A DNA stretch of 64,000 nt from Parcubacteria group bacterium (GCA_041661275.1 JBAZUU010000002.1:33206-97205), one strand, 5' to 3'; counted from the stretch's first letter, positions 3,356 to 58,551 are shown. The notes: generated by a model from the sequence alone, not told the origin. Program-made: numbers and translations.

Positions 3356-4069
3356 ATGGAAAAAGAACTGGAAAATGTGCCAGCTCACGTAGCGATCATT
3401 CCCGATGGCAACCGCCGCTGGGCGAGAGGCAAGGGAATGAAGCCGTGGGAAGGGCACGAAGTGGGAGCGAAAAATTTTGAAGTTCTGATAAAGCATTCGC
3501 TTAAAAAAGGCATAAAGTGTCTGACTATTTGGGGTTCGTCCATAGACAATCTGACTAAACGTCCATTTGATGAAAAGCGGGCCCTTCTTGATATATATAG
3601 TCGGTATTTTAAAAGGCTGTTGGATGGCAACGAGATCCATGAAAATGAAGTGCAAGTGAATGTCATTGGTCGGTGGGAAGAACAGTTTCCGGAGTCGCTC
3701 AAAAAAATAATCTATGAAGCCATGGAAAAAACCAGGCACTACAAGAAAAGGATGCTTAATTTTCTTTTGGCTTACAGTGGAACTGATGAAATGATTTTGG
3801 CAATCGAGTGTATTAGCAGCAAGTATGAAAAAGGCGTGAAAATTACGCCGGAGCTGATAAAGGAAAACCTTATGACCAGGGGTTTACCACCGGTCGACTA
3901 TTTGGTGCGTACCGGTGGAGAACCGCATAACAGCACAGGATTTATGATGTGGGATATCGCTGACGCTCAATACTATTTCTCGCCCGAACTTTTTCCGGAC
4001 TTTGATGACAAAAAATATGAAGAAGCGTTGGAAGAATACGCGAGACGTCAGAGGAGATTTGGAGGCTGA
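3356..4069 (+). CDS. uppS: Undecaprenyl diphosphate synthase (cis-prenyltransferase)
   Basis: HVAIIPDGNRRWA signature and overall UppS-like sequence. Confidence 0.9.
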   Translation: MEKELENVPAHVAIIPDGNRRWARGKGMKPWEGHEVGAKNFEVLIKHSLKKGIKCLTIWGSSIDNLTKRPFDEKRALLDIYSRYFKRLLDGNEIHENEVQVNVIGRWEEQFPESLKKIIYEAMEKTRHYKKRMLNFLLAYSGTDEMILAIECISSKYEKGVKITPELIKENLMTRGLPPVDYLVRTGGEPHNSTGFMMWDIADAQYYFSPELFPDFDDKKYEEALEEYARRQRRFGG

Positions 4070-4185
4070 ATAAAATTTTCAATTTGAAATTTTAAATTTA
4101 AAATCAAATCTTAATTTAAAATTTTAAATTAAATCATTAAAAATTTATTTCAAATTTCAAATTAAAAATTTAAAATTTTAATCAC

Positions 4186-4500: not shown

Positions 4501-5417
4501 ACGAAATTTACGATCTAATAATCATTGGCGCGGGACCGGCCGGTTTTGCTGCGTCTATTTATGCTGCGCGCTACAAACTAAACCATTTGATTTTTGGCAC
4601 TACAGCGGGTGGTCAGATTTCAGAAATTCATAACCTGGAAAATTATCCCGGCATTTTGAAAATTTCCGGCGCCGAGCTTATTGCCAAACTCAATGAACAG
4701 ATAGAAAATCTGGGTGTGCGGCTGACCAAAGAATCTGTTTCTGCCATCACAAAGAACGGCGATGTTTTTACCGTTGAAACAACCGGAAAAAAATACCAGT
4801 CTCGTGCGATAATCCTGGCTATGGGGACGGAATACAAGAAAATCAATATTCCCGGAGAAAAAGAATTTACGGGGAGAGGAGTTTCGTATTGTCCAACTTG
4901 CGACGCGTTTTTCTTTCGCAATAAAACCGTTTGCGTCTTGGGCGGAGCCAATAGCGCGGCTTCTGCGGCATTGGAGCTGGCCGAAGTGGCGGAAAAAGTA
5001 TATATGATTTTTCGCCGCGACAAAATGACTGCTGAACCTATGTGGGTGGAAAAAATTATGAATCATTCCAAAATTGAGCTCGTGAGTGGAACGAATGTCA
5101 TTGAAATAAAGGGGGATAAAAAAGTAGAAAAGGTGATTTTAGATAAGGCCAAAGGTGACCAGAATCATCTTGATGTGGACGGAGTTTTTGTAGAAGTCGG
5201 ATCCGATCCAGGAGCTGCTCTGGCTACTAAATTGGGTGTCAAAACAGATGAAGATAACTACATCATCGTCAATCCTGATATGAGTACCAATATCCCTGGC
5301 ATATACGCTGCTGGCGACATCACTACCGGTTCCAACAAATTCCGCCAGATCGTCACCGCCACCGCCGAAGGCGCGATCGCTGCTGCGAGTGTGTATAAGC
5401 TTTTGAAGTTAAAGTAA
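4497..5417 (+). CDS. trxB: Thioredoxin reductase
   Basis: IIGAGPAGFAASIYAAR FAD motif, redox-active CPTCD, AGDIT. Confidence 0.9.
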   Translation: MNEIYDLIIIGAGPAGFAASIYAARYKLNHLIFGTTAGGQISEIHNLENYPGILKISGAELIAKLNEQIENLGVRLTKESVSAITKNGDVFTVETTGKKYQSRAIILAMGTEYKKINIPGEKEFTGRGVSYCPTCDAFFFRNKTVCVLGGANSAASAALELAEVAEKVYMIFRRDKMTAEPMWVEKIMNHSKIELVSGTNVIEIKGDKKVEKVILDKAKGDQNHLDVDGVFVEVGSDPGAALATKLGVKTDEDNYIIVNPDMSTNIPGIYAAGDITTGSNKFRQIVTATAEGAIAAASVYKLLKLK

Positions 5418-5423
5418 AAACGT

Positions 5424-5497
5424 CTTCCTCCTCTCCCTTCGGGAGAGGATGTCAGCCAAATTTTTTCTTAAAAATTTTGGCTGACAGGAGAGGGGAC
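5424..5497. repeat. GC-hairpin palindromic repeat unit (family 1): CCTCTCCC-loop-GGGAGAGG, then a TGTCA...TGACA hairpin, then GGAGAGGG
   Basis: cctctcccttcgggagagg hairpin followed by tgtcagccaaa...tttggctgaca hairpin and ggagagggg. Near-identical units are at 9663-9726 and (in inverted orientation) 26625-26673. Confidence 0.7.
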
Positions 5498-6667
5498 TCG
5501 CCAATACATATAAAACCTATGAAAAGTCAAGTAAAAAAGACAGAGCATCCATCCATCCTGCTCTCAAAAAAACTCGGAGGGAAAGTGGAAATTAGAAGCA
5601 AAGTTAAACTAACAAAAGATAATTTAAAGGTTTTGTATACTCCGGGTGTGGCGGAGGTTTCCAAAGCTATCGCCAAGGATAAGAAACTTTCGAAAATTTA
5701 TACCATTCGCAAAAATACCATTGCTGTCATTTCTGATGGCAGCGCGGTGCTTGGTCTTGGTAACATCGGACCGGAAGCAGCTATGCCAGTTATGGAAGGA
5801 AAGTCACTGTTATTTAAAGAATTAGGCAATGTTGATGCTTTTCCCATTGTTCTTAATACTCAGGATACGGAAGAAATAATAAAAATAGTAAAAGCCTTGG
5901 AACCGAGTTTTGGCGGGATAAATTTGGAAGATATTTCCGCGCCAAGATGTTTTGAGATCGAAGAACGTCTCAAAAAAGAAATGAATATTCCTGTCATGCA
6001 TGACGACCAGCATGCCACAGCGGTAGTGATTTTGGCCGGGCTTATCAATGCTTTGAAAGTGGTGAAAAAGGATATTAAAAATATAAAAATAGTTATTTCC
6101 GGAGTCGGAGCGGCTGGAATCGCTACGGCCAAACTTCTTTTGAAATATGGAGCGAAAAATATAATAATGGTCGATTCTTCCGGAACTATATATAAAGGCC
6201 GGGACAATATGAATCCGGTAAAAGTTAAATTAGCAGTGATAACAAATAAAGGCATGATTAAGGGTGGCGTACGCGACGCACTGAAAAATTCCGATGTTTT
6301 TATCGGTCTTTCCGCGCCTAACATTTTGACTGAAGAAGACATCAGATGTATGAATAAGGACGCGATCGTTTTTGCCATGGCCAATCCTGTTCCGGAGATT
6401 ATGCCGGAGAGAGCCAAGGCTGGCGGAGCCAGAATTATTGCTACTGGCCGTTCTGACTATCCCAATCAGATCAATAATGTCCTGGTCTTCCCGGGAATTT
6501 TTAGAGGAGCGCTCGACAATAATATCAAAAAAATTACTGATAATCATAAACTTGCGGCCGCTCGCGCTATTGCCGGATTGATAAAAAAACCAAAGAGTAG
6601 TAAAATAATACCAGAAGCATTGGATCCACGAGTAATGAAAGCTGTGGCACGCGTGTTTAAAAGATAA
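5477..6667 (+). CDS. NAD(P)-dependent malic enzyme (small type)
   Basis: YTPGVAEV, ISDGSAVLGLGNIGPEAAMPVMEGK, ISGVGAAGIA Rossmann motif. Listed start is TTG inside the repeat; the real start is probably ATG at 5519 (MKSQVKK). Confidence 0.85.
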   Translation: MADRRGDSPIHIKPMKSQVKKTEHPSILLSKKLGGKVEIRSKVKLTKDNLKVLYTPGVAEVSKAIAKDKKLSKIYTIRKNTIAVISDGSAVLGLGNIGPEAAMPVMEGKSLLFKELGNVDAFPIVLNTQDTEEIIKIVKALEPSFGGINLEDISAPRCFEIEERLKKEMNIPVMHDDQHATAVVILAGLINALKVVKKDIKNIKIVISGVGAAGIATAKLLLKYGAKNIIMVDSSGTIYKGRDNMNPVKVKLAVITNKGMIKGGVRDALKNSDVFIGLSAPNILTEEDIRCMNKDAIVFAMANPVPEIMPERAKAGGARIIATGRSDYPNQINNVLVFPGIFRGALDNNIKKITDNHKLAAARAIAGLIKKPKSSKIIPEALDPRVMKAVARVFKR

Positions 6668-7112: not shown

Positions 7113-7746
7113 CAAATTTATGAGTAAGCTGGTTAATGAGTTGATAAAACAGGGATATCTTAAGTCCGACCTGATTATTGACGCCTTTTCTGAGATCAGC
7201 CGGGTTGAATTTGTTCCGCATGAATTGGAAAAGGAAGCAGAAGCGAACATCGCCCTCCCTATCGGTTATGGGCAAACCATTTCTCAGCCATTGACAGTGG
7301 CGTTTATGCTGGAACTTCTTGATCCAAAAAGAAGCCAAAATGTCCTGGACATTGGTTCCGGTTCTGGCTGGACAACCGCCCTTCTTTGCTATATAGTTGG
7401 GCGACATGGAAAAGTTACGGCTATTGAGCGAAAAGAGGAGCTTAAAAAAATGGGAGAAAAAAATACCGATAAATATGGATATCTCCGAAACGGAAAAGAT
7501 GGCATCGCTGAATTTTTTGTAGGCGATGGGACAAAAGGATTCAAAAAAAACGCGCCGTATGATAGGATTCTTGTATCTGCTTCGACTGAATGCGTCCCCA
7601 ACGATCTCAAAGAACAATTAAAAGTTGGAGGAAAGATGGTTGTCCCGCTTCGTCATAGTATTTGGTATATGGAGAAGAAAGGGGATAATGATTTTTACAA
7701 AGAAGAATATCCTGGGTTTGAGTTTGTACCGCTCATCGAAGACTAA
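7066..7746 (+). CDS. pcm: Protein-L-isoaspartate O-methyltransferase
   Basis: GYGQTISQP, VLDIGSGSGW and PYDRI motifs. Probable true start at 7120 (MSKLVNEL). Confidence 0.8.
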   Translation: MEREPATLSFRLWGYNKFMSKLVNELIKQGYLKSDLIIDAFSEISRVEFVPHELEKEAEANIALPIGYGQTISQPLTVAFMLELLDPKRSQNVLDIGSGSGWTTALLCYIVGRHGKVTAIERKEELKKMGEKNTDKYGYLRNGKDGIAEFFVGDGTKGFKKNAPYDRILVSASTECVPNDLKEQLKVGGKMVVPLRHSIWYMEKKGDNDFYKEEYPGFEFVPLIED

Positions 7747-7854
7747 AATTTGTAATTAGAAATTTTTAATTTTTAATGAATTTCTAATTACTAAATTTTA
7801 AAATTTTAAATTCAATAAAAATTTCAAATTAAAAATTAAAAATTACGAGTAAGG

Positions 7855-8904: not shown

Positions 8905-8936
8905 GCCGGTTGTCGTGCTTGACAACCGGCTTTTTA
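8905..8936 (+). terminator. Rho-independent terminator after mltG
   Basis: gccggttgtcgtgcttgacaaccggc stem followed by ttttta. Confidence 0.75.
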
Positions 8937-8995
8937 TTTGCTATAATGGACTATCGTAGTTTGAAAATTGGCAGGTGAATTGTGGCTTGTTTAAG

Positions 8996-9505: not shown

Positions 9506-9564
9506 AATAGCTGCGGCTGGGAGCGTCATTCCTGGCCGCGGTTTTTGTTTTGGCTTTTAGTATT

Positions 9565-9726
9565 CCCTCTCTCCCCTTGGGAGAGATGTCACGATTCTTA
9601 TCGTGACAGAGAGGGTGCTATGTAAAACGGAAAAATTAAAGTTTTGTGAATTTAATTTAGAACCCTCTCCTGTCAGCCAAAATTTTAAGAAAAATTTAGG
9701 CTGACATCCTCTCCCGAAGGGAGAGG
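9565..9726. repeat. Composite family-1 element: two hairpin-pair units in inverted orientation flanking ~47 bp
   Basis: Left unit ccctctctccccttgggagagatgtcacgattcttatcgtgacagagaggg. Right unit ccctctcctgtcagcc...ggctgacatcctctcccgaagggagagg is near-identical to the reverse complement of the 5424-5497 unit. Confidence 0.7.
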
Positions 9727-9739
9727 AGGAAGAATGAGG

Positions 9740-10306
9740 CTAAATTAATTTTTCAATTTCTTTTAGAACACCACTATACATTTCTTCTATTTTCTCTAAT
9801 TCTTCTCCTGAAAAGTTTTGCAAAACGAAATCGGCGGGTTCGATTTGAGAACGCAAATTTTCCGTGGCGATGCCGATGCGGATACGTTGGAATTCTTTAG
9901 TCCCCAGCTTAGTTATAATATCCTCGACACCATTATGCCCGGCAGAGCCGGACTGAGTCGCGATTTTGTATTCGCCCAGAGGCAAGTCGATGTCGTCGTG
10001 AATGACAATAATATCCTCCGGCGATAATTTATAAAAATCCAAAATAGTCCGGACGGAATCTCCAGAGTTGTTCATGAATGTTTGGGGCTTTAATAATAGG
10101 AATTTTGAATTTTGAATTTTGAATTTTGAATCCAGCAATCTTTCAGAAATTTCACTGTTAAACTTTTTATTTAATGTAAAATCGGGAAAATCGTATTTTT
10201 CCTTGATTCTATCCACCATCATAAACCCGACGTTGTGGCGGGTGTTTTCGTACTGTTTGCCAGGATTGCCCAGGCCGATTATTAATTTCATAAATGTCTG
10301 AACCAC
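9740..10306 (-). CDS. pth: Peptidyl-tRNA hydrolase
   Basis: MKLIIGLGNPGKQYENTRHNVGFMMVD N-terminal signature. Probable start at 10288. Confidence 0.85.
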   Translation of the reverse strand: MVQTFMKLIIGLGNPGKQYENTRHNVGFMMVDRIKEKYDFPDFTLNKKFNSEISERLLDSKFKIQNSKFLLLKPQTFMNNSGDSVRTILDFYKLSPEDIIVIHDDIDLPLGEYKIATQSGSAGHNGVEDIITKLGTKEFQRIRIGIATENLRSQIEPADFVLQNFSGEELEKIEEMYSGVLKEIEKLI

Positions 10307-19268: not shown

Positions 19269-19718
19269 ATGAATTGTCCATTTTGTAACAATCAAGAAAC
19301 AAAAGTAGTAGATTCACGGGATACTAGTGATGGAAAAATAACCCGCAGACGTCGTGAATGCTTCAAATGCACTGCCCGGTTTTCCACTTATGAAGAAATA
19401 GAGCTTTTACGACTGGCCATCGTCAAAAAAGACGGTTCAAAAGTTGATTATGATAAGTGTAAAATCGAAGCGGGGATAAAAAAAGCATTGGAGAAGCGGC
19501 CAATCACTCAAGAAAGATTTGCCAAACTCATGGGAGACATCGAATATGATATGCGGTCGATGGAAAAGCCGGAAATAACCACCAGAGAAATCGGAAAAAT
19601 GGTGCTCAAAAAACTGAAAGAACTCGACGAAGTCGCTTATGTGCGATTTGCGAGCGTCTATAAATCATTCGGATCGATAGAGAGTTTCAAGAAAGAATTA
19701 GATACGTTTGACAAATAG
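19269..19718 (+). CDS. nrdR: Transcriptional repressor NrdR
   Basis: MNCPFCNNQETKVVDSRDTSDGKITRRRRECFKC zinc ribbon plus ATP-cone. Confidence 0.9.
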   Translation: MNCPFCNNQETKVVDSRDTSDGKITRRRRECFKCTARFSTYEEIELLRLAIVKKDGSKVDYDKCKIEAGIKKALEKRPITQERFAKLMGDIEYDMRSMEKPEITTREIGKMVLKKLKELDEVAYVRFASVYKSFGSIESFKKELDTFDK

Positions 19719-19722
19719 AAGA

Positions 19723-19837
19723 TAGTTGATTGGAAAATAGAAAATAGTTCAGGAAAAAAGAAATAGGAGAATGGAAAATCAAATTTCTAATTTCCACTTT
19801 CTTAAGCCATTTTCCTTTTTCTATTCAACTAATTTCT
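19723..19837. repeat. Imperfect palindromic intergenic element, family 'agttgattggaaaatag...gttcaggaaa...ccattttc...tattcaactaatttc' (copy 1)
   Basis: Related copies at 28201-28330 (opposite orientation) and 46171-46286. Arms are partially self-complementary. Confidence 0.65.
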
Positions 19838-19871
19838 TTATAATATTTTTTAATAATCTAATTTAATTGTT

Positions 19872-25088: not shown

Positions 25089-26684
25089 GTGACCAAATCA
25101 AAAGTATTTTTTATTTTATCATTGGGTTTTATCGGGGGTGTTTTTAGTGCCTCTTTTTATTATCCCAGTCTGATTGATAATTATTATTTATTAATTTTAG
25201 TTTTGCTAGCTGTTATAATTCTAGCTATTTTTTACAAAAAACCGGCGATGATGGCCGGATTTTTTATATTATTTTTTATTTTTGGTATACACTTGACGGA
25301 AAAAAGACTGGAAGTGGTGAAAAATATAAAAGAAGATGATTTTTCGGGGGAGGTTGTGGTAATAGGCGAGCCAACAATATCAGGCAGGCAACAAAGAATG
25401 GTTGCTTTTCCCAAGATCCAACCTTTGGAGCAGCTCCCAAGGTTGAACCTTGGAACTGATTCAAGATTTTTAATAACCGCTGGAATTTTTCCTGAATATA
25501 AATATGGAGATGTTTTGAGAGTTGATTGTAAATTGGAAATTCCAAAGAATTTTGGACGAGGTCCTTCGACTGCGTCCGACTTGCGGTCGGACTCCGCTCA
25601 GGACGAATCCTCCGGATTCGATTACAAAATGTATCTAGCCAAAGACGGGATTTATTATCTTTGCAATAATCCTAAAATAGAAGATCTTAATAGAAACGAA
25701 GGAAATAAATTTTACGCGGCGATATTGAATATTAAAAATAAATTTAATGACAATATAATGAAGCTGATGCCGTCGCCGCAGTCGGGGTTGCTTTCGGGAT
25801 TATTAATCGGAGGATCGGGGCTACTTTCTAAAGACTATCAAAATTATTTTTCTCTCACCGGCACAACGCACATCGTAGCAGTGTCCGGATACAATGTAAC
25901 AATTGTCGCGGAATATCTGATGCTTCTGGGACTTTTTATCGGTCTCTGGCGGCAGCAAGCCTTTTGGTTTGCGGCTATTGGAATAATTTTTTTTGTAATT
26001 TTAACCGGCATGCCGTCTTCGGCCGTTCGGGCGGGAGTGATGGGGATTCTTCTCATTTGGGCGATGAAGAACGGGCGATTGGCTAACGCGCAAAATGCTA
26101 TCATATTTGCGGCGGGAGTTATGCTATTGGCAAATCCATTGTCATTGCGTTGGGATGTCGGATTTCAACTGTCATTTTTGGCGACACTGGGGATCGTTTA
26201 TGTTTATCCGATATTTAATGAATATCTTATGAAATTAGACGCGATGAATCGCGTCTCTACGATTGCGGAAATATTATTTCTTACACTATCGGCGCAGGTT
26301 TTTGTTTTGCCGATATTGATGATTAATTTTGGAAAATTGTCTCTCATTTCACCTCTGGCTAACGTCCTGATTTTGCCCATTATTCCGCTCACGATGCTCA
26401 CCGGATTTATAGCTATCCTTTTTAGTTTTATCATTCCGCCCATCGGTCAAGTCTTCGCCTGGTTGGCCTTTTTGCCGTTGAAATATGAAACGATGGTAAT
26501 AAAATTTTTGGCCAGTCTAAAATATTCCTCGGTGGAAATTTCCAATTTTTCGTGGATTGGAGTGGTTTTGTGGTATATAATTTTAGGAGGAGGGGTAGTT
26601 TTGATTAAAAAGAAAATAACAAATCCTCCTCTCCCCTTGGGAGAGGATGCCGAGTCTTCGAGGCAGGAGAGGGCTCCTAATTAA
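25089..26684 (+). CDS. comEC: ComEC/Rec2 competence channel protein (DUF4131 + competence domains)
   Basis: Multi-pass membrane protein. GYNVTIVAEYLM and competence-domain similarity. Last 19 codons and the stop are contributed by repeat element C. Confidence 0.8.
   Translation: MTKSKVFFILSLGFIGGVFSASFYYPSLIDNYYLLILVLLAVIILAIFYKKPAMMAGFFILFFIFGIHLTEKRLEVVKNIKEDDFSGEVVVIGEPTISGRQQRMVAFPKIQPLEQLPRLNLGTDSRFLITAGIFPEYKYGDVLRVDCKLEIPKNFGRGPSTASDLRSDSAQDESSGFDYKMYLAKDGIYYLCNNPKIEDLNRNEGNKFYAAILNIKNKFNDNIMKLMPSPQSGLLSGLLIGGSGLLSKDYQNYFSLTGTTHIVAVSGYNVTIVAEYLMLLGLFIGLWRQQAFWFAAIGIIFFVILTGMPSSAVRAGVMGILLIWAMKNGRLANAQNAIIFAAGVMLLANPLSLRWDVGFQLSFLATLGIVYVYPIFNEYLMKLDAMNRVSTIAEILFLTLSAQVFVLPILMINFGKLSLISPLANVLILPIIPLTMLTGFIAILFSFIIPPIGQVFAWLAFLPLKYETMVIKFLASLKYSSVEISNFSWIGVVLWYIILGGGVVLIKKKITNPPLPLGEDAESSRQERAPN
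25437..25453. repeat. REP-like palindrome CCAAGGTTGAACCTTGG inside the comEC reading frame
   Basis: Identical palindrome flanks the RAYT gene at 49526-49550 and 50232-50258. Here it encodes ...LPRLNLGT... in frame. Confidence 0.7.
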
Positions 26685-26773
26685 ATTCGCAAAACTATAA
26701 GCTTGTTACTGTTTCACCAAGAGCCCTCTTTGTCACGATAAGAATTGTGACATCTCTCCCAGGGGGAGAGAGG
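26625..26773. repeat. Composite family-1 GC-hairpin element (two inverted units) spanning the comEC stop
   Basis: cctcctctccccttgggagagg...gagaggg and ccctctttgtcacgataagaattgtgacatctctcccagggggagagagg. The right unit is nearly the reverse complement of the 9565-9615 unit. Confidence 0.7.
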
Positions 26774-26980
26774 AAAGAAAAAAGACAATAAAAAAATCCC
26801 CGATTCTTAACCGCGGCGGCGGCGAAAGTCGGGGGCTAATCCCACCATGGATCGTTCCAGATCAGATGGGCGATGATATGAAAAATAATGTCACTTAGAT
26901 TGTATATCATATCATGATTTCACTAAAAAATCAAGCGCTCTCATACGATAAGCTAAAATTCTCCTTAACCAAGCCAAAAT

Positions 26981-27811
26981 ATGCCTAATCGAAAAGCCCT
27001 ATATTTAATCCTCCTGACTCTTGCTATCATTGCCGCTATTTTGGCGGGGATTATTTGGTATCAGCAAAAACAAGAAATGAAAGTGGTTTTTTTTGATGTG
27101 GGACAAGGGGATTCCATTCTGATTGAGCAGGGAAGTAATCAGATTTTGATTGATGGTGGACCGGACGGAAAAAAAGTAATGGAAAAATTGGGCGAATATG
27201 TACCGTTTTGGGATAGGAATATAGAAGTGGTGATAGCGACTCATCCGGACGAAGACCATATTGACGGGCTCATTGATGTCATGGAAAATTACAATATTGG
27301 TGAAATAATCGATAATGGAGCTGATGTAGACAGTCAGGTTTATAAAAAATATCAGGACGTAATCTCGCAAAAAAATATCAATCGTATCGAGGGAAAATCG
27401 GGAATGGAAATAAAACTGGCGGATAATACAAAACTTTCTATTTTATCTCCTGATGGAACGCAAGACAAAAATAACCCGAAAGATACAAATCTTTCGAGCA
27501 TCGTTTCTAAACTAACTTTCGGTGAAAATAGTTTTTTATTTACTGGCGATTTTCCGACAGAAGGCGAGCAAGATTTATTTAGTAAAAATATCGATTTACG
27601 CGCGCGAGTGCTGAAAGTAGCTCATCATGGGTCAAAATATGCAACAAGTGACGAATTTCTAGATAAAGTTAACCCACAAGAGGCAGTAATATCCGTTGGG
27701 AAAAACAATAGATATGGACACCCGGCAGAGGATGTGATAAGCAGATTGGAAGCGCATAAAATTAATATAAAAAGAACCGATGTATCCGGAGATATCGAGT
27801 ATCAATTTTAA
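26981..27811 (+). CDS. Metallo-beta-lactamase fold protein, ComEC C-terminal-like (ComEC/Rec2-related)
   Basis: N-terminal transmembrane helix. FFDVGQGDSILIE, HPDEDHIDGL, LKVAHHGS MBL motifs. Confidence 0.75.
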   Translation: MPNRKALYLILLTLAIIAAILAGIIWYQQKQEMKVVFFDVGQGDSILIEQGSNQILIDGGPDGKKVMEKLGEYVPFWDRNIEVVIATHPDEDHIDGLIDVMENYNIGEIIDNGADVDSQVYKKYQDVISQKNINRIEGKSGMEIKLADNTKLSILSPDGTQDKNNPKDTNLSSIVSKLTFGENSFLFTGDFPTEGEQDLFSKNIDLRARVLKVAHHGSKYATSDEFLDKVNPQEAVISVGKNNRYGHPAEDVISRLEAHKINIKRTDVSGDIEYQF

Positions 27812-27912
27812 ATTTGAAATTTTAAATTTGAAATGAATTTTAAATGACTAAATTTGAAATTAAAGCATTAAAAATTGATTAAAAATTTTAAATTAAAAAT
27901 TAAAAATTACAG
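27812..27912. repeat. AT-rich 'aaatttgaaat(g)a' repeat element (family shared with 4076-4185, 7747-7851, 58365-58500)
   Basis: aatttgaaatgaattttaaatgac and terminal aaattaaaaattaaaaattac(g)ag shared with the copy at 7747-7851. Confidence 0.5.
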
Positions 27913-27990: not shown

Positions 27991-28194
27991 ATGCCAGTAG
28001 CCAGACAAAGACATACCAAAGCCAGACGCGACAGAGCGAGAGTGTTTTACAAGCTAAAACCGAAAAGTCTTGTGGAATGTTCCAATTGTAGCGCTATGAT
28101 CATTGCCCATACCACTTGCCCAAAATGCGGATTTTATAAGAAAAAAGAAGTGGTGGACACGATGAAGAAAGCGACAAAAAAAGCGAAAAAGTAG
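27991..28194 (+). CDS. rpmF: 50S ribosomal protein L32
   Basis: MPVARQRHTKARRDRAR...ECSNCS...CPKCGFYKKKEV matches the bL32 pattern with a zinc-ribbon Cys pair. Confidence 0.7.
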   Translation: MPVARQRHTKARRDRARVFYKLKPKSLVECSNCSAMIIAHTTCPKCGFYKKKEVVDTMKKATKKAKK

Positions 28195-28200
28195 TTTTTA

Positions 28201-28330
28201 GAAATTAGTTGAATAGAAAAAAGAAAATGGTTTAAGAAATAGGAAATAGGAAATAAGAAATTAGATCATATCTTTTTTCCAACTTCTTCTTTCCTGAACT
28301 ACTTTCCATTTTCCAATCAACTATTTTCCA
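28201..28330. repeat. Imperfect palindromic intergenic element, family 'agttgattggaaaatag' (copy 2, inverted relative to copy 1)
   Basis: gaaattagttgaatagaaaaaagaaaatggtttaagaaatagg ... cctgaactactttccattttccaatcaactattttcc. Confidence 0.65.
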
Positions 28331-28337
28331 ATTTTCT

Positions 28338-29678: not shown

Positions 29679-32048
29679 ATGTTTCTCAAACGCCTAGAAA
29701 TTAACGGCTTCAAATCATTTGCCTCCAAAACCACTTTGGATTTTTTGATTGACTCTGAAAACCACAAGACTCATGGGATAACAGTAGTGGTCGGACCAAA
29801 TGGAAGTGGCAAATCCAACATTGCCGATTCTTTGCGTTGGGTGATGGGGGAGCAATCAATGAAACATCTGCGCGGAAAAAAATCAGAGGACATTATTTTT
29901 GCCGGAAGTGGAAAAAAAGCGCGTTTAGGGAGTGCCAAAGTAACTTTATATCTAGACAATTGTGACCAAAAAATTCCCATTGATTTTTCCGAAGTTACCA
30001 TTGCCAGAAAAATTAACCGTTCTGGCGAGGGAGAATATTTTATCAATGGTTCGCGTGTCCGTCTTCAGGATATTACCGATCTTTTGGCCAAAGCTGGCGT
30101 AGGAAAAGAAAGTTATGCCATTATCAACCAGGGAATGGCCGATGCTATTCTTGCCGCCTCGCCACTGGAACGCCGGACGATCATTGAAGATGCAGCCGGA
30201 GTGAAACAATATCAGATCAAAAAAGAAAGGTCTATCCGAAAACTGGATTCAACTCGGGAAAATTTGGAGCGAGTGAAAAGTTTAGTAGAAGAAATAAAGC
30301 CGCATCTTCGAATGCTCAAAAGACAATCGGACAAAGCGGCTAAGAGTGAGGAAATATTTACGAGTCTTAAAGAAAAGCAGATAAAACTTTTCAGTCATCT
30401 TTGGCATAATTTTCGAGACGAGAAACAAATTTTTGATGAAAAAAAAGACGAATTGGGACGAGAGATGATGAATATGCAACGCGAAGTAGATAAACTTTTA
30501 GACGCAATAAACGCGGAAGAAAAGAACAATAAGGAAAATGAGACTCTCGCCGGATTGGAAAAAGATTCTAGGGAAGCTCGGGTGAAATATAATACTCTCG
30601 AGCGAGAGCTGATCATAACAGAGGGACGATTGGAAATTGAAAAAGAGAAGCAAGCTAGCCGGCAAGTCTTGGAGGAGATAAAAATAACCAGTATTCCTGT
30701 CGATTCTCTTTATGTCAAAAAAATAGTGGAAGAAATCCGGATCGACCAGGAAAGGTTGATAGAAAAATTACAAAAAGTGGAAAAGATTGAAGAACTCCAA
30801 GATATCAAAGAATTTGCCCGAGCGATCCAACAAAGACTATTTGAGCTCAAAGCAGATATTGAAAAAGGGAAAAAGGAGCAGAATTCCGAGAGCGAGGCTC
30901 TCGGAGCCGCTCCAAGAGCCTCGCTCTCGGATGCTTCTGAAATTAAGAAAGACAACTCGGTAATTTTAGAATTGCAAAATAAATTAGTCCAGTTGAGAAA
31001 GGATATAAAGGATCTGGAAAACAAAATTAGAGAAATCGATGAATCGAGAGAAAAAGAAATAACGGAAGACAGAAATCGACGCCAGAAATTTTTTGAGATT
31101 GAAAGAAAAATGAGGACAAAGCAGGATGAACTGGGAAAACTGAAAGATCAATTCAATGATGCCAAAATTTCTTTGGCGCGCGTGGAAGTGCGAGAGGAAG
31201 ATTTGAGGACGGATGTAAAATCAGCGCTCAAAATAGAACCCGAGGAACTTTCAAAAAATAATGAAGAAATCAATCGGGAAGAGTTGGAGCGAGAAGTGGC
31301 GCGTCTGAAAATCCAACTGGAACAGATCGGCGGAATAGATCCGATGGTGATAGATGAATATAGGGAAACTCAAAAACGTTTTGATTTTCTCTCCACTGAA
31401 TCAGAAGATCTGGAAAAAGCTATTGGTAGTCTTCGGGAGATAATAAAAGAAATGGAGCAAAAAATTTCTAAGGAATTTGAGCTGGCTTTCACCGAGATCA
31501 ACAAAGAATTCACCAAATACTTCAAAATAATTTTTGGTGGCGGCGCAGCGCATCTGACAAAAGTTAAGGTAAAAAATCGGAAGTTTAAGATTAAAAAAAC
31601 CGAAGAAGAATCAGATTTAGAAACTGAAAATATAGAGCAAAACGGTGATGACAATGTAGAAGATGTGGAAAATGAAAAGGATGAGATCGGAATCGATATC
31701 TTTGCTTGTCCGCCAGGAAAAAGAATAACCAGCCATGCTATGCTTTCGGGAGGTGAACGGTCACTTACTTCTCTGGCTCTTCTCTTTGCTGTCATTGCCC
31801 ACAACCCACCACCATTCTCTATTTTGGATGAAGTAGAGGCGGCACTTGATGAAGCTAATTCCAGACGTTTTGGCCGGATACTTTCAGAGCTTTCCAAAAA
31901 CACTCAATTTGTCATTATCACTCATAACCGTGAAACCATGCGCCAGGCGTCGATGCTCTATGGGGTGACGATGGGGGAAGACGGAATTTCCAAACTTCTT
32001 TCGGTGAGATTAGACCAAGTAGGACAAGGAGGGAAAATTATAAAATAA
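29679..32048 (+). CDS. smc: SMC-like chromosome segregation ATPase (short form, 789 aa)
   Basis: N-terminal Walker A GPNGSGKSN, long coiled coil, C-terminal LSGGERSLTSLALLFA signature and Walker B ILDEVEAALD. Confidence 0.8.
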   Translation: MFLKRLEINGFKSFASKTTLDFLIDSENHKTHGITVVVGPNGSGKSNIADSLRWVMGEQSMKHLRGKKSEDIIFAGSGKKARLGSAKVTLYLDNCDQKIPIDFSEVTIARKINRSGEGEYFINGSRVRLQDITDLLAKAGVGKESYAIINQGMADAILAASPLERRTIIEDAAGVKQYQIKKERSIRKLDSTRENLERVKSLVEEIKPHLRMLKRQSDKAAKSEEIFTSLKEKQIKLFSHLWHNFRDEKQIFDEKKDELGREMMNMQREVDKLLDAINAEEKNNKENETLAGLEKDSREARVKYNTLERELIITEGRLEIEKEKQASRQVLEEIKITSIPVDSLYVKKIVEEIRIDQERLIEKLQKVEKIEELQDIKEFARAIQQRLFELKADIEKGKKEQNSESEALGAAPRASLSDASEIKKDNSVILELQNKLVQLRKDIKDLENKIREIDESREKEITEDRNRRQKFFEIERKMRTKQDELGKLKDQFNDAKISLARVEVREEDLRTDVKSALKIEPEELSKNNEEINREELEREVARLKIQLEQIGGIDPMVIDEYRETQKRFDFLSTESEDLEKAIGSLREIIKEMEQKISKEFELAFTEINKEFTKYFKIIFGGGAAHLTKVKVKNRKFKIKKTEEESDLETENIEQNGDDNVEDVENEKDEIGIDIFACPPGKRITSHAMLSGGERSLTSLALLFAVIAHNPPPFSILDEVEAALDEANSRRFGRILSELSKNTQFVIITHNRETMRQASMLYGVTMGEDGISKLLSVRLDQVGQGGKIIK
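30887..30930. repeat. Palindromic element (family 2: GAGCGAGGCTCTCGGAGCCGCTCCNAGAGCCTCGCTC) in frame inside smc
   Basis: cgagagcgaggctctcggagccgctccaagagcctcgctctcgg encodes SEALGAAPRASLS. A second copy is intergenic at 33731-33773. Confidence 0.7.
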
Positions 32049-33713: not shown

Positions 33714-33730
33714 CAGAAATATTTGTTCTC

Positions 33731-33773
33731 CTGGAGCGAGGCTCTCGGAGCCGCTCCCAGAGCCTCGCTCCAG
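33731..33773. repeat. Family-2 palindromic element, intergenic copy
   Basis: ctggagcgaggctctcggagccgctcccagagcctcgctccag. Confidence 0.7.
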
Positions 33774-33783
33774 GACGGGGTTC

Positions 33784-46159: not shown

Positions 46160-46170
46160 ATTAAATTAGA

Positions 46171-46286
46171 AAATAGTTGATTAGAAACTGGAAAATAGTT
46201 CAGGAAAATGGAGATTAGAAAATAGATATCCTGTTTCCAATTTCTTTTTTCTTAAACCAATTTCTATTTTCCATTCAACTAATTTC
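46171..46286. repeat. Imperfect palindromic intergenic element, family 'agttgattggaaaatag' (copy 3)
   Basis: tagttgattagaaactggaaaatagttcaggaaaatggagattag ... cttaaaccaatttctattttccattcaactaatttc. Confidence 0.65.
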
Positions 46287-46299
46287 TAAAACGAAAGAG

Positions 46300-49521: not shown

Positions 49522-49525
49522 AGCT

Positions 49526-49550
49526 ACTTCCAAGGTTGAACCTTGGAAGT
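49526..49550. repeat. REP-like palindrome ACTTCCAAGGTTGAACCTTGGAAGT (left flank of RAYT)
   Basis: Perfect 25-nt palindrome directly after the murF stop. Confidence 0.8.
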
Positions 49551-49564
49551 GAGAATTTTATTAT

Positions 49565-50233
49565 ATGCAAAGAAAAATACCATTTATCAATGGGGAGTTT
49601 CATCATATTTATAATCGCGGAGTAGATAAACGCGAAATTTTTCTAGATAGAGATGATTATGAAAGGTTTTTTATTTCTATGTATTTTTTAAATACCAAGG
49701 AAAATGATCTGATAAGCAAGTGGTTAGATTTTAAGAAATTTAATCCCAAGGTTCAACCTTGGGAGTTTAAAAAAATAAAGTCGGAAGATAAACTCGTTGA
49801 GCTTAATTGTTATTGTCTAAATGATAATCATTACCACTTTATTATAAAACAACTTCGAGATAGAGGTATTGAAATATTTATGCAGAAACTGGGAACGAGT
49901 TACACTATGTATTTTAATAAGAAGTATGACAGAAGCGGATCATTGCTTCAGGGAAGGTTTAAGTCGGCTTATATTGACTCCGATGATAAATTGCTCTATT
50001 TGTCAGCGTATGTGAATAAAAATCATTCTATCCATGGGTATAAAGAGGGTGATAATTGGCAATATTCAAGTTTGAATGAATACCTGAATAAAAGCAAAAC
50101 TTTTTGTCTTTGCAATAAAAGTCCGATCATTGATCAATTCAGGGACATAAAGGAGTATCAAAACTATATAAATGTGAATGCGCTACAGATGAGAGAAAGT
50201 AAAGAAATGGAAAAAATGGCATTGGAATTTTAA
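49565..50233 (+). mobile_element. IS200/IS605-like HUH-Y1 transposase of REP-associated type (RAYT)
   Basis: YHIYNRG first-strand motif, HuH motif NDNHYHFII, Tyr motif LYLSAYVNKNH (compare E. coli TnpA-REP DYIYINPVKHG). Flanked on both sides by the same palindrome. Confidence 0.75.
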
Positions 50234-50258
50234 CTTCCAAGGTTGAACCTTGGAAGTT
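50232..50258. repeat. REP-like palindrome AACTTCCAAGGTTGAACCTTGGAAGTT (right flank of RAYT)
   Basis: Perfect palindrome. Immediately followed by a diverged copy of the murF 3' end (50259-50313). Confidence 0.8.
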
Positions 50259-50399
50259 ACTTCTCTGTCGGCAAGACGCAAAATGGAAAAGAAAGCCGTG
50301 GAAGGAAGTTTAGTGTAAGATTATTTTTAGAAATAGTAAAACCCCTGGCGGAATACCGGCCAGGGGTTTGTTGTTTATACCTCCTTGTAGCTATAGCAG

Positions 50400-58125: not shown

Positions 58126-58551
58126 TTGTTCACCTTCCTTTCTAGAGGATCCGCCTAATTTTTTTCAAGCAAAGCTCGAAAAAATTTTGGCGGAAAAATA
58201 AATTATTAAGGTGCTTACGTTGAAGCTTGCGGCTCTTGCGAGCGTCTCATATTAAATTCTAACAAAATCTGAACTGACGTCAACTAGACAAGCGGGTTAA
58301 AATAGGGCTTAATATGGGACATAGCACAGAATATTGGCGCCTAGGAAAGTTCCAGCTTCTTCGGAGTAATAATTTAAAATTTGAAATTTATAATTTGAAA
58401 TGAATTTGAAATGATTTAATTTTAAATTTAAAATTAAGATTTGATTTAAAATTATAAATTCTAAATTTAAAATTATTTTGAAATATTTTTTTCTGGTTGT
58501 GGTATTATCTTATGTTTTAGTTCTTTTTGAAAAAATATTTTTGAAAAAAAG

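Follow-up and report, generated by a model that had tools for sequence, protein, structure and literature searches.

Probable class II intrastrand triplex repeats with a hairpin in the second loop at gene junctions of a Parcubacteria genome

Five repeat units in the window

The window, i.e. the whole 64,000-nucleotide stretch of Parcubacteria DNA analysed here, carries five copies of a short GC-rich unit, labelled A to E, each between genes or at a gene end as had been predicted. Copy A is located between the trxB stop codon and the start of a gene for malic enzyme. Copies C and B lie together between two convergent genes, a small plus-strand ORF with a terminator-like hairpin (9509-9543) directly before copy C, and pth, the stop codon of which is at 9740-9742. 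Copies E and D separate the two ORFs of a split comEC, the first encoding the DUF4131 and Competence domains and the second the metallo-beta-lactamase domain. Copy E itself encodes the last ~19 codons of the Competence-domain ORF, being translated in frame (..PLPLGE..) into the ComEC C-terminus, and the stop codon follows just after the copy.

The core CTCTCCCNNNGGGAGAG (CTCTCCC-N3-GGGAGAG) was read at 5431, 9569, 9709, 26629 and 26754, which places all five units where the original prediction had put them. Dinucleotide shuffles of the window give an expectation of 0.06 occurrences, and a sixth core copy was not found in the 64 kb even when two mismatches were allowed. With the strand of a copy set by its G-rich strand, copies A, C and E are on the plus strand and copies B and D on the minus strand, confirming that both orientations occur.

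The layout of the unit, read off the sequence, comprises a C-tract/G-tract hairpin with a 3-nt loop (hairpin 1, P1), one base, a second hairpin (P2) and a distal G-tract. P2 starts with TGTCA in the window copies, with the exception of copy E (TGCC). A leader, TCTTCC, is common to the units and starts at 5423 for copy A. The distal 3' tract mirrors the purine arm of hairpin 1, with G opposite G and either A or T opposite A. In the following list the pyrimidine (Y) arm, the purine (R) arm and the distal tract, entered as the putative reverse-Hoogsteen (RH) strand, are given for each copy, together with the number of positions that follow this mirror relation (mirror triplets).

5429-5494, plus strand: copy A, solo, long type, 9/9 mirror triplets; Y arm TCCTCTCCC 5429-5437, loop 1 5438-5440, R arm GGGAGAGGA 5441-5449, loop 2 (hairpin P2) 5450-5485, RH strand AGGAGAGGG 5486-5494
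9568-9615, plus strand: copy C, short type, 8/8 mirror triplets; Y arm TCTCTCCC 9568-9575, loop 1 9576-9578, R arm GGGAGAGA 9579-9586, P2 9587-9607, RH strand AGAGAGGG 9608-9615
9663-9727, minus strand: copy B, long type, 9/9 mirror triplets; Y arm 9727-9719, loop 1 9718-9716, R arm 9715-9707, P2 9706-9672, RH strand 9671-9663, leader to 9733
26627-26673, plus strand: copy E, long type, 9/9 mirror triplets; Y arm 26627-26635, loop 1 26636-26638, R arm 26639-26647, loop 2 26648-26664 (weak 4-bp P2, TGCC/GGCA), RH strand AGGAGAGGG 26665-26673
26724-26771, minus strand: copy D, short type, decaying, 7/8 mirror triplets; Y arm 26771-26764, loop 1 26763-26761, R arm 26760-26753, P2 26752-26732 with one pair broken, RH strand AAAGAGGG 26731-26724 with one mismatch
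9547-9733: composite dimer 1; T-rich leader, short copy C (plus), 47-nt spacer, long copy B (minus), tail to tail
26618-26802: composite dimer 2; long copy E (plus), 50-nt spacer, short copy D (minus), T-rich leader

The two dimers, each an inverted pair of the short and the long subtype, are themselves related, dimer 2 being the reverse complement of dimer 1. The stretch containing C and B (9530-9745) aligns with the reverse complement of that containing D and E (26610-26815) at 82% identity over ~200 nt. As this alignment includes the spacer, the two sites represent one composite short-plus-long dimer that is present twice, and the five units are consequently not independent. Copy A is in turn an inverted copy of B, to which it is 95% complementary.

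Both hairpins fold as RNA as well as DNA, as described in the original prediction. In the minimum-energy fold of the single-stranded DNA, all five copies have P1 directly abutting P2 and leave the 3' G-tract unpaired. For copy A, in which P1 and P2 are formed and the tail is free, this fold has z = -6.6, whereas copy D folds weakly (z = -1.6 as RNA and -3.3 as DNA).

A three-strand sequence rule across phyla

A search of one genome per GTDB species with the pattern CTCTCCC-N3-GGGAGAG-N0-1-ATGTCA retrieved copies well beyond the window, i.e. at least 107 stretches from about nine phyla, with several copies per genome. The carriers among the matches listed are Moraniibacteriota and other Patescibacteria, Ignavibacteriales, Zixibacteria, Phycisphaerales, Hyphomicrobium, Clostridia, Eggerthellaceae, Flavobacteriaceae and Bdellovibrionales, and the copies most similar to those of the window come from Moraniibacteriota MAGs. 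Contrary to what had been supposed, the family is thus not particular to one lineage. Among the same matches the consensus is CCTCTCCC-N3-GGGAGAGG-A-TGTCA[variable stem-loop]TGACA-GG(T/A)GAGGG, and the cross-phylum consensus element reads CCTCTCCCTCTGGGAGAGGATGTCACGAAGTGACAGGTGAGGG. The pattern prescribed hairpin 1 and ATGTCA, which in part explains why hairpin 1 is invariant; conservation also extends to the remainder of the element, which the pattern left unspecified. Stems measure 7-9 nt, and loop 2 ranges from 12 to 54 nt across the family and from 17 to 36 nt in the window.

The mirror relation of the 3' tract holds throughout. In the family this tract does not repeat the purine arm directly, nor does it complement the C-tract well. 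The window copies follow the rule over 8-9 positions, four of them perfectly and copy D with one mismatch, compared with 0.045 such mirror motifs in shuffled windows. The relation was quantified on 229 perfect, non-mirror-symmetric pyrimidine/purine hairpins from the loci, among the matches listed, with the tail sought within 80 nt. A perfect mirror tail in which A faces A or T accompanies 190 of the 229 hairpins. The figure falls to 49/229 when A may face A only, and the control in which A may face A or C gives 53/229. Direct-repeat tails (21/229) and Watson-Crick partners of the Y arm, i.e. the C-tract (14/229), are rarer still. Among the tails tallied for the stem families and the long copies, the positions facing A hold A or T, never C, wherever the tail is intact.

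The relation is also retained when the stem changes. The long purine arm GGGAGAGG is paired with the tail GG(T/A)GAGGG, and the short arm GGGAGAG with GAG(A/T)GGG. The covarying stem families, drawn from the same set of genomes as the scan loci, add stems that lie outside the search pattern: GGGAGAAGG with tail GGATGAGGG (40/43), GAGGAAGG with GGAAGGAG, GGGGGAGG with GGTGGGGG, AGGGGAG with GAGGGGT, and GGGGAGGGG with GGGGTGGGG, the last with a connector of only 3-5 nt. The counts for the individual stem families are lower bounds that omit hairpins with an all-pyrimidine loop, including the window copies. The mirror relation is accordingly kept by at least five different stem sequences. Length covaries in the same manner, the extra basal C-G pair of the long type co-occurring with an extra 5' tail G in 89 of 90 long copies among the matches listed; these copies were chosen on hairpin 1 and ATGTCA only, and their tails are GGTGAGGG in 68 cases and GGAGAGGG in 8. 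A mirror tail with A or T opposite A is what an antiparallel purine-motif triple helix, composed of a Y arm, an R arm and a reverse-Hoogsteen strand, would demand. That the three-strand rule is kept while the stems change may serve as comparative evidence for selection on the fold itself.

P2 varies in a different way. Across the family the five basal pairs (TGTCA/TGACA) keep their sequence, and the inner part covaries. In a 64-sequence alignment 4 of 7 P2 pairs change on both sides (pair 32-60, for instance, is CG in 38 sequences, UA in 13 and GC in 9). Among the matches listed there are 37 distinct P2 inner sequences, 33 of which lengthen the pairing, as compared with 27% of shuffles. The compensatory divergence of the inner stem proposed in the original prediction is hence borne out for the family, but not for the window copies on which it was based. 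The supposed third variant, cgataagaattg, corresponds to the second type read as its reverse complement, with one pair-breaking substitution, so that the window contains three inner stems (A/B, C/D and E) and not a set of compensatory variants. Between A/B and C/D the stem has been exchanged as a whole, and the substitution that separates D from C disrupts a pair.

The distal tract had originally been given a role in RNA, with the single C-tract pairing with either the adjacent or the distal G-tract; the element would then act as a terminator/anti-terminator switch or as a 3'-end stabiliser. In the window this alternative pairing is physically possible. In all five copies the C-tract finds a complement in the distal tract (GGAGAGGG, GAGAGGG), and the RNA fold of copy C makes use of the distal pairing. 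Copies A, B, C and E are moreover sense-oriented directly past stop codons, a placement that speaks against the triplex reading in so far as it would also suit a 3'-end role in RNA. All five window copies carry A-type tails. As such tails also permit Watson-Crick pairing with the C-tract, the window copies alone cannot separate the two pairings, and the triplex reading for the window lineage rests on the wider family. Here the alternative helix is not conserved; its central pair is standard in only 11 of 64 distinct copies and T.T in 53, and an 8-nt Watson-Crick partner lies within 200 nt of the T-type tail in only 2 of 70 copies. The element is not followed by a T-run on its 3' side, and the terminator scan does not call it in its own orientation. 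Among 192 elements from the matches listed, for which gene calls were crude (longest ORFs) and the counts are lower bounds with the same omission as above, 29 are sense and 32 antisense in co-directional contexts, while 44 lie between convergent and 17 between divergent genes. This preference for gene ends is REP-like and has no tie to the transcribed strand. Further copies occur inside ORFs, and the E. coli PIT elements, which share the architecture of the present unit (see below), showed neither promoter nor terminator activity (Hoyne and Maher 2002, cited in PMC4666352). In combination, these observations argue against the proposed terminator/anti-terminator function and make an RNA-level switch of any such kind quite unlikely.

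A second RNA-based reading takes the element for a small structured RNA, non-coding and of the Whalefall-1 type, in which the two hairpins and the conserved 3' tail would act as RNA. At the gathering threshold, Rfam returned only tRNAs and the L10 leader from the window and 18 other loci, the element itself falling into no family. Still, Whalefall-1 (RF01762) is the only bacterial Rfam family whose model aligns with the element over its full length (positions 1-56 of 56). Weinberg et al. (2010, PMC2864571) described it from whale-fall metagenomes as a likely non-coding RNA that has two hairpins and is known from uncultured bacteria only; a triplex is not mentioned. Its consensus, UCuCuCC-loop-GGaGaGA-hairpin-GGuGAGG, matches the element, with near-identical blocks (a CUCUCC hairpin, a second variable hairpin and GGUGAGG), and the P2 covariation would suit an RNA. 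However, the scores of copy A (15.8 bits) and of an Ignavibacteriales/Zixibacteria-type copy (13.7 bits) are far under the gathering threshold of 37, and by Rfam's criterion the window copies are not members. The hairpin covariation is equally expected of a DNA hairpin, and secondary structure alone does not explain a mirror tail with the A/T rule. The element is also multi-copy, stands in either orientation to genes and recurs inside ORFs. An RNA of the Whalefall-1 type is on these grounds very unlikely. Conversely, the Whalefall-1 consensus itself fits the mirror rule over six positions, and Whalefall-1 may therefore be a DNA element, in which case at least one Rfam 'RNA' motif would really be a DNA structure.

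Relation to BoxC-type triplex repeats

Work on intrastrand triplex repeats has been confined almost entirely to E. coli and to short loops. Earlier work on the BoxC/PIT elements is said to go back to Bachellier in the 1990s and to Hoyne and Maher in 2000 and 2002. BoxC, PIT elements and TM_ECO denote the same repeat, 5'-CCCTCNCCC-N3-6-GGGNGAGGG-N3-GGGNGAGGG, which Holder et al. (2015, PMC4666352) place among the class II purine-motif intrastrand triplexes. According to the same study, a BoxC/TM_ECO oligonucleotide forms a very stable triplex as judged by CD and NMR and the element stops polymerase in vitro, while in vivo DMS footprinting gave no triplex signal. BoxC elements are intergenic, show no strand bias and form inverted pairs that always consist of two subtypes; their surroundings vary more between strains than control sites do, and TM_ECO has been reported only in Proteobacteria, in 262 genomes (PMC4666352).

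The units described here share this architecture, with a pyrimidine arm, a 3-nt loop, a purine arm, a connector and a mirror purine strand in which T or A faces A. The window stems correspond to the E. coli pair GGGAGAGGG/GGGTGAGGG minus one G, the equivalent being GGGAGAGG/GG(T/A)GAGGG. Like BoxC, the element is intergenic and multi-copy, lacks strand bias, forms inverted two-subtype pairs and, in the flanks clustered (see below), has no linked transposase. Consequently, the family is not undescribed with regard to its architecture, contrary to the original prediction. Literature searches with element sequence strings returned only unrelated primer matches. The differences concern the stems, which are 9 nt in BoxC and 7-9 nt here, the host range, which here covers Patescibacteria and about eight other phyla among the matches listed, and above all the second loop. 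The latter is 3 nt in BoxC, whereas here it is a hairpin of 12-54 nt with a TGTCA/TGACA base, a variable sequence and conserved pairing. Neither the window nor any of 131 loci contains a match to the strict TM_ECO pattern, and a second loop of 6 nt or less was found in only 12 of 198 elements among the matches listed. Since loop 2 is a long hairpin, published triplex searches, with loops of up to 6 or 10 nt, would miss this variant, and current catalogues built on such limits miss most elements of this kind.

Compared with the conventions of these searches, the order Y arm, R arm and RH strand on one strand, which defines class II, is found in all five window copies. The stems are perfect over 8-9 bp, within the 6-15 nt that ITxF uses for a Watson-Crick paired homopurine arm, and the third strand is antiparallel with at most one mismatch, four copies being perfect and D having one. 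Loop 1 (3 nt) is equally within range. Loop 2 (17-36 nt) exceeds the limits of both ITxF (1-6 nt) and Hoyne (0-10 nt) (PMC4666352). These loop lengths are a search convention and not a physical requirement; judged from sequence, the compatibility of a 17-36 nt hairpin in loop 2 with a triplex is putative.

Taken together, we assign the units to the class II purine-motif triplex type of DNA repeat with a probability of about 0.7, as regards their structural identity. The simplest reading is that they belong to the BoxC/PIT/TM class as non-coding, non-autonomous DNA repeats, the second loop of which has turned into a hairpin. The proposed fold would form on a G-rich strand freed from its complement, whether during DNA uptake, within a transcription bubble or at a replication fork. 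In it, (T)CCTCTCCC as the pyrimidine arm and GGGAGAGG(A) as the purine arm would pair into a Watson-Crick hairpin of 8-9 bp, and the TGTCA...TGACA hairpin would serve as the turn. The 3' strand, (A)GG(A/T)GAGGG, would then run back along the purine arm in the major groove, antiparallel to it, via the reverse-Hoogsteen triplets G.G-C, A.A-T and T.A-T. The geometry of the units fits such a course, the tail starting at the base of hairpin 1 and heading towards its loop, antiparallel to the purine arm. Formation of a triplex by this hairpin-looped variant is suggested by comparison with BoxC. The element would likewise probably act as DNA rather than as RNA, purine-motif triplexes being stated to be impossible in RNA (PMC4666352).

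As to biological role, the element would spread non-autonomously and serve mainly as an obstacle to polymerases and a source of local rearrangement, not as a gene regulator; this functional part is proposed tentatively, at somewhat less than even odds. The elements are also assembly break sites and possibly genome rearrangement sites, and genome-reduced Patescibacteria carry them at gene junctions, including that between the split comEC halves.

For the same E. coli motif, written as GGGAGAGGG-TTA-GGGTGAGGG, a quadruplex/hairpin switch has been proposed (Kaplan et al. 2016, PMC5100583). Applied to the present units, the G-rich strand would alternate between G-quadruplex, hairpin and duplex. 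The strand does contain four G-runs (GGG, GG, GG and GGG), and BoxC-type sequences gave ion-dependent, quadruplex-like CD spectra (Kaplan et al., PMC5100583). The canonical G-quadruplex pattern (G3+ N1-7) is not attained, as only two of the runs reach 3 G and the central 'loop' is 17-36 nt long. Furthermore, a quadruplex requires neither a mirror relation or A/T rule at non-G positions nor covariation of the C-rich arm, and the 18 imino signals in the NMR spectrum of BoxC fit a triplex rather than a quadruplex (PMC4666352). We consider such a switch most improbable.

Returning to the triplex, the covariation of stem and tail may be read more broadly as evolutionary evidence that intrastrand triplexes are selected in vivo, within a pan-bacterial superfamily of hairpin-looped elements. 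Such a superfamily would include Whalefall-1 and the very abundant CCTTCTCCC/GGGAGAAGG/GGATGAGGG family, and would have some cellular partner or copying mechanism. This joint reading is a possibility that we rate below an even chance. The interest of the element increases if the comparative signal is accepted as evidence of triplex selection in vivo; the variant spans very distant phyla and reaches even into one protein-coding gene.

Signs of mobility and genomic context

The trxB/malic-enzyme gap is 101 nt in the window, 72 of which are copy A and its leader, as compared with a 5-nt gap or an overlap in the relatives L111 and L112, whose TrxB proteins are 63% identical to that of the window. 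The site of copy A is hence empty at the orthologous position of these two relatives, i.e. presence and absence are observed at one site. A third relative, L110, has a TrxB 91% identical to that of the window, yet the region downstream is altogether different. At the C/B site, the adjacency of pth and yceG is retained by no relative in the metagenome set. The empty trxB site, the 95% likeness of A and B and an in-frame copy in flavobacteria (see below) are signs of mobility.

REPs are simple imperfect palindromes that are recognized by RAYT transposases via a flanking GTAG. The present element resembles REPs, BIMEs and REPINs in its short, GC-rich, intergenic palindromic units, in the inverted dimers with a spacer and in the preference for convergent genes. 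The earlier description of a structured, interspersed REP/BIME-like family is borne out. The units differ from REPs in their third, mirror-symmetric strand; GTAG is absent, and a RAYT-like gene was not found in the flanks of the loci searched. In a search for linked genes, ORFs of at least 120 aa were clustered from ~107 retrieved stretches of up to 8 kb each. No ORF family was common to more than 7 of these ~107 loci and no transposase-like family appeared; the largest clusters (7 loci) are housekeeping-like as judged by sequence only, e.g. an ABC-type ATPase and ATP synthase. The element was present in 1 of 2.9 million viral contigs and gave no plasmid match, although the BLAST low-complexity filter may hide some matches of the latter kind. 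Terminal inverted repeats are absent apart from the internal hairpins, and the only candidate for a target-site duplication at site A is a weak and unconvincing TAAAA(A)C repeat (5415-5421 and ~5509-5515).

These data also bear on the idea that the element is an ordinary REP/MITE-like mobile repeat, the conserved blocks being sites for a protein such as a transposase and the mirror symmetry incidental. The interspersed and intergenic distribution, the inverted dimers as in BIMEs and REPINs, the near-identical copies at unlinked sites and the empty site in relatives all suit this idea, as does a copy in frame within a coding gene. The lack, in the flanks clustered, of a transposase-like or other ORF family common to more than 7 loci, the single viral contig, and the absence of plasmid matches, of terminal inverted repeats and of a convincing target duplication do not. 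To our knowledge, proteins recognize inverted or direct repeats, not mirror repeats, and the covariation of tail and stem over different stems indicates a nucleic-acid contact. An ordinary protein-recognized repeat with incidental symmetry is therefore unlikely. The idea does not exclude the class II triplex assignment, since a protein might nonetheless mobilise an element of the triplex type.

Other candidates were dropped. The copies contain no RYYYAAC/GTTRRRY as in an integron attC site, and self-cleaving ribozyme cores, a Xer/dif site and IS200/IS605 ends were discarded on reading the copies.

Insertion into coding sequence has a parallel in the Rickettsia palindromic elements (RPE; Ogata et al. 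2000), reportedly AT-rich, 100-150 nt long, confined to Rickettsia and without triplex architecture. The likeness lies in a small structured repeat carried in frame within genes, here the 3' end of comEC in the window and a flavobacterial gene of the alpha-2-macroglobulin family (~2,200 residues). In five Flavobacteriaceae species, the latter contains a 42-nt copy that is translated as SLPLGEMSQSDRVG. The residues fall in a loop, and 12 of 13 aligned homologues (48-75% identical) are without them. The copy nevertheless keeps hairpin 1 and a T-type mirror tail, and its hairpin 2 displays the compensatory changes CACAAAGTG, CAGGAACTG and CACGAAGTG.

Element copies within coding sequences

The competence gene comEC is split in the window, its two ORFs together spanning 25089-27811. 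Exactly between them lies the E/D element dimer, which consists of copy E, a spacer and copy D, and copy E itself supplies the last ~19 codons of the upstream ORF (..NPPLPLGEDAESSRQERAPN*).

25089-26684, comEC ORF 1, DUF4131 and Competence domains
26981-27811, comEC ORF 2, metallo-beta-lactamase domain

An in-frame copy of the element, 42 nt long, is likewise found in a gene of the alpha-2-macroglobulin family (~2,200 residues) from five species of Flavobacteriaceae (in the compared stretches L025, L027, L049, L070 and L091; e.g. L025:5937-5989, minus strand). The 42-nt copy is absent from 12 of the 13 aligned homologues, which are 48-75% identical, and hairpin 2 of the copy displays compensatory changes across species.

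Surroundings of copies A and C

Copy A lies between trxB and a malic-enzyme gene. In L002, a Logan contig encoding an identical TrxB, the sequence stops within copy A, 33 nt past the trxB stop codon, as if the assembly had broken at the repeat. The 91%-identical relative L110 carries another hairpin and another gene 3' of trxB (L110:1694-1760).

A strong terminator-like hairpin, which carries a T-run, directly precedes copy C on its 5' side. A perfect match to a sigma-70-type promoter (TTGACA-17-TATAAT, TG included) coincides in part with another terminator-like hairpin, which lies 5' of a 50-aa ORF.

8905-8947, promoter match and overlapping terminator-like hairpin
9509-9543, terminator-like hairpin 5' of copy C

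Additional repeat families

An additional triplex-type family, with the layout CCTTCTCCC-N3-GGGAGAAGG-T-[GSCC hairpin]-GGATGAGGG (read on the opposite strand as CCCTCATCC..GGGC..ACCTTCTCCC), is abundant in many of the genomes among L003-L109 (e.g. L003:4785-4840 and L082:4156-4200), where it and the first family, the CTCTCCC-N3-GGGAGAG element, are frequently arranged tail to tail.

Four other kinds of repeat were observed in the window.

4066-4182, 7740-7848, 27797-27908, 58364-58479, both orientations, AT-rich interspersed repeat of ~110 nt (AAATTTTAAATTTGAAATTT...)
19710-19851, 28186-28336, 46163-46291, palindromic repeat of ~140 nt, arms TAGAAAATAGTTGATTGGAAAATAG-like
25429-25459, 49522-49552, 49738-49768, 50229-50259, short palindrome CCCAAGGTTGAACCTTGGGA
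30885-30931, 33729-33775, GC-rich near-palindrome of 47 nt (TCCGAGAGCGAGGCTCTCGGAGCCGCTCC...)

At least the first three AT-rich copies fill intergenic spaces that separate called ORFs, and copies of the ~140 nt family are 81-86% alike. Three of the short palindromes fall in a stretch of <750 nt (~49.5-50.3 kb) and one lies within the comEC ORF. The two near-palindrome copies, 2.8 kb apart, are 85% complementary.
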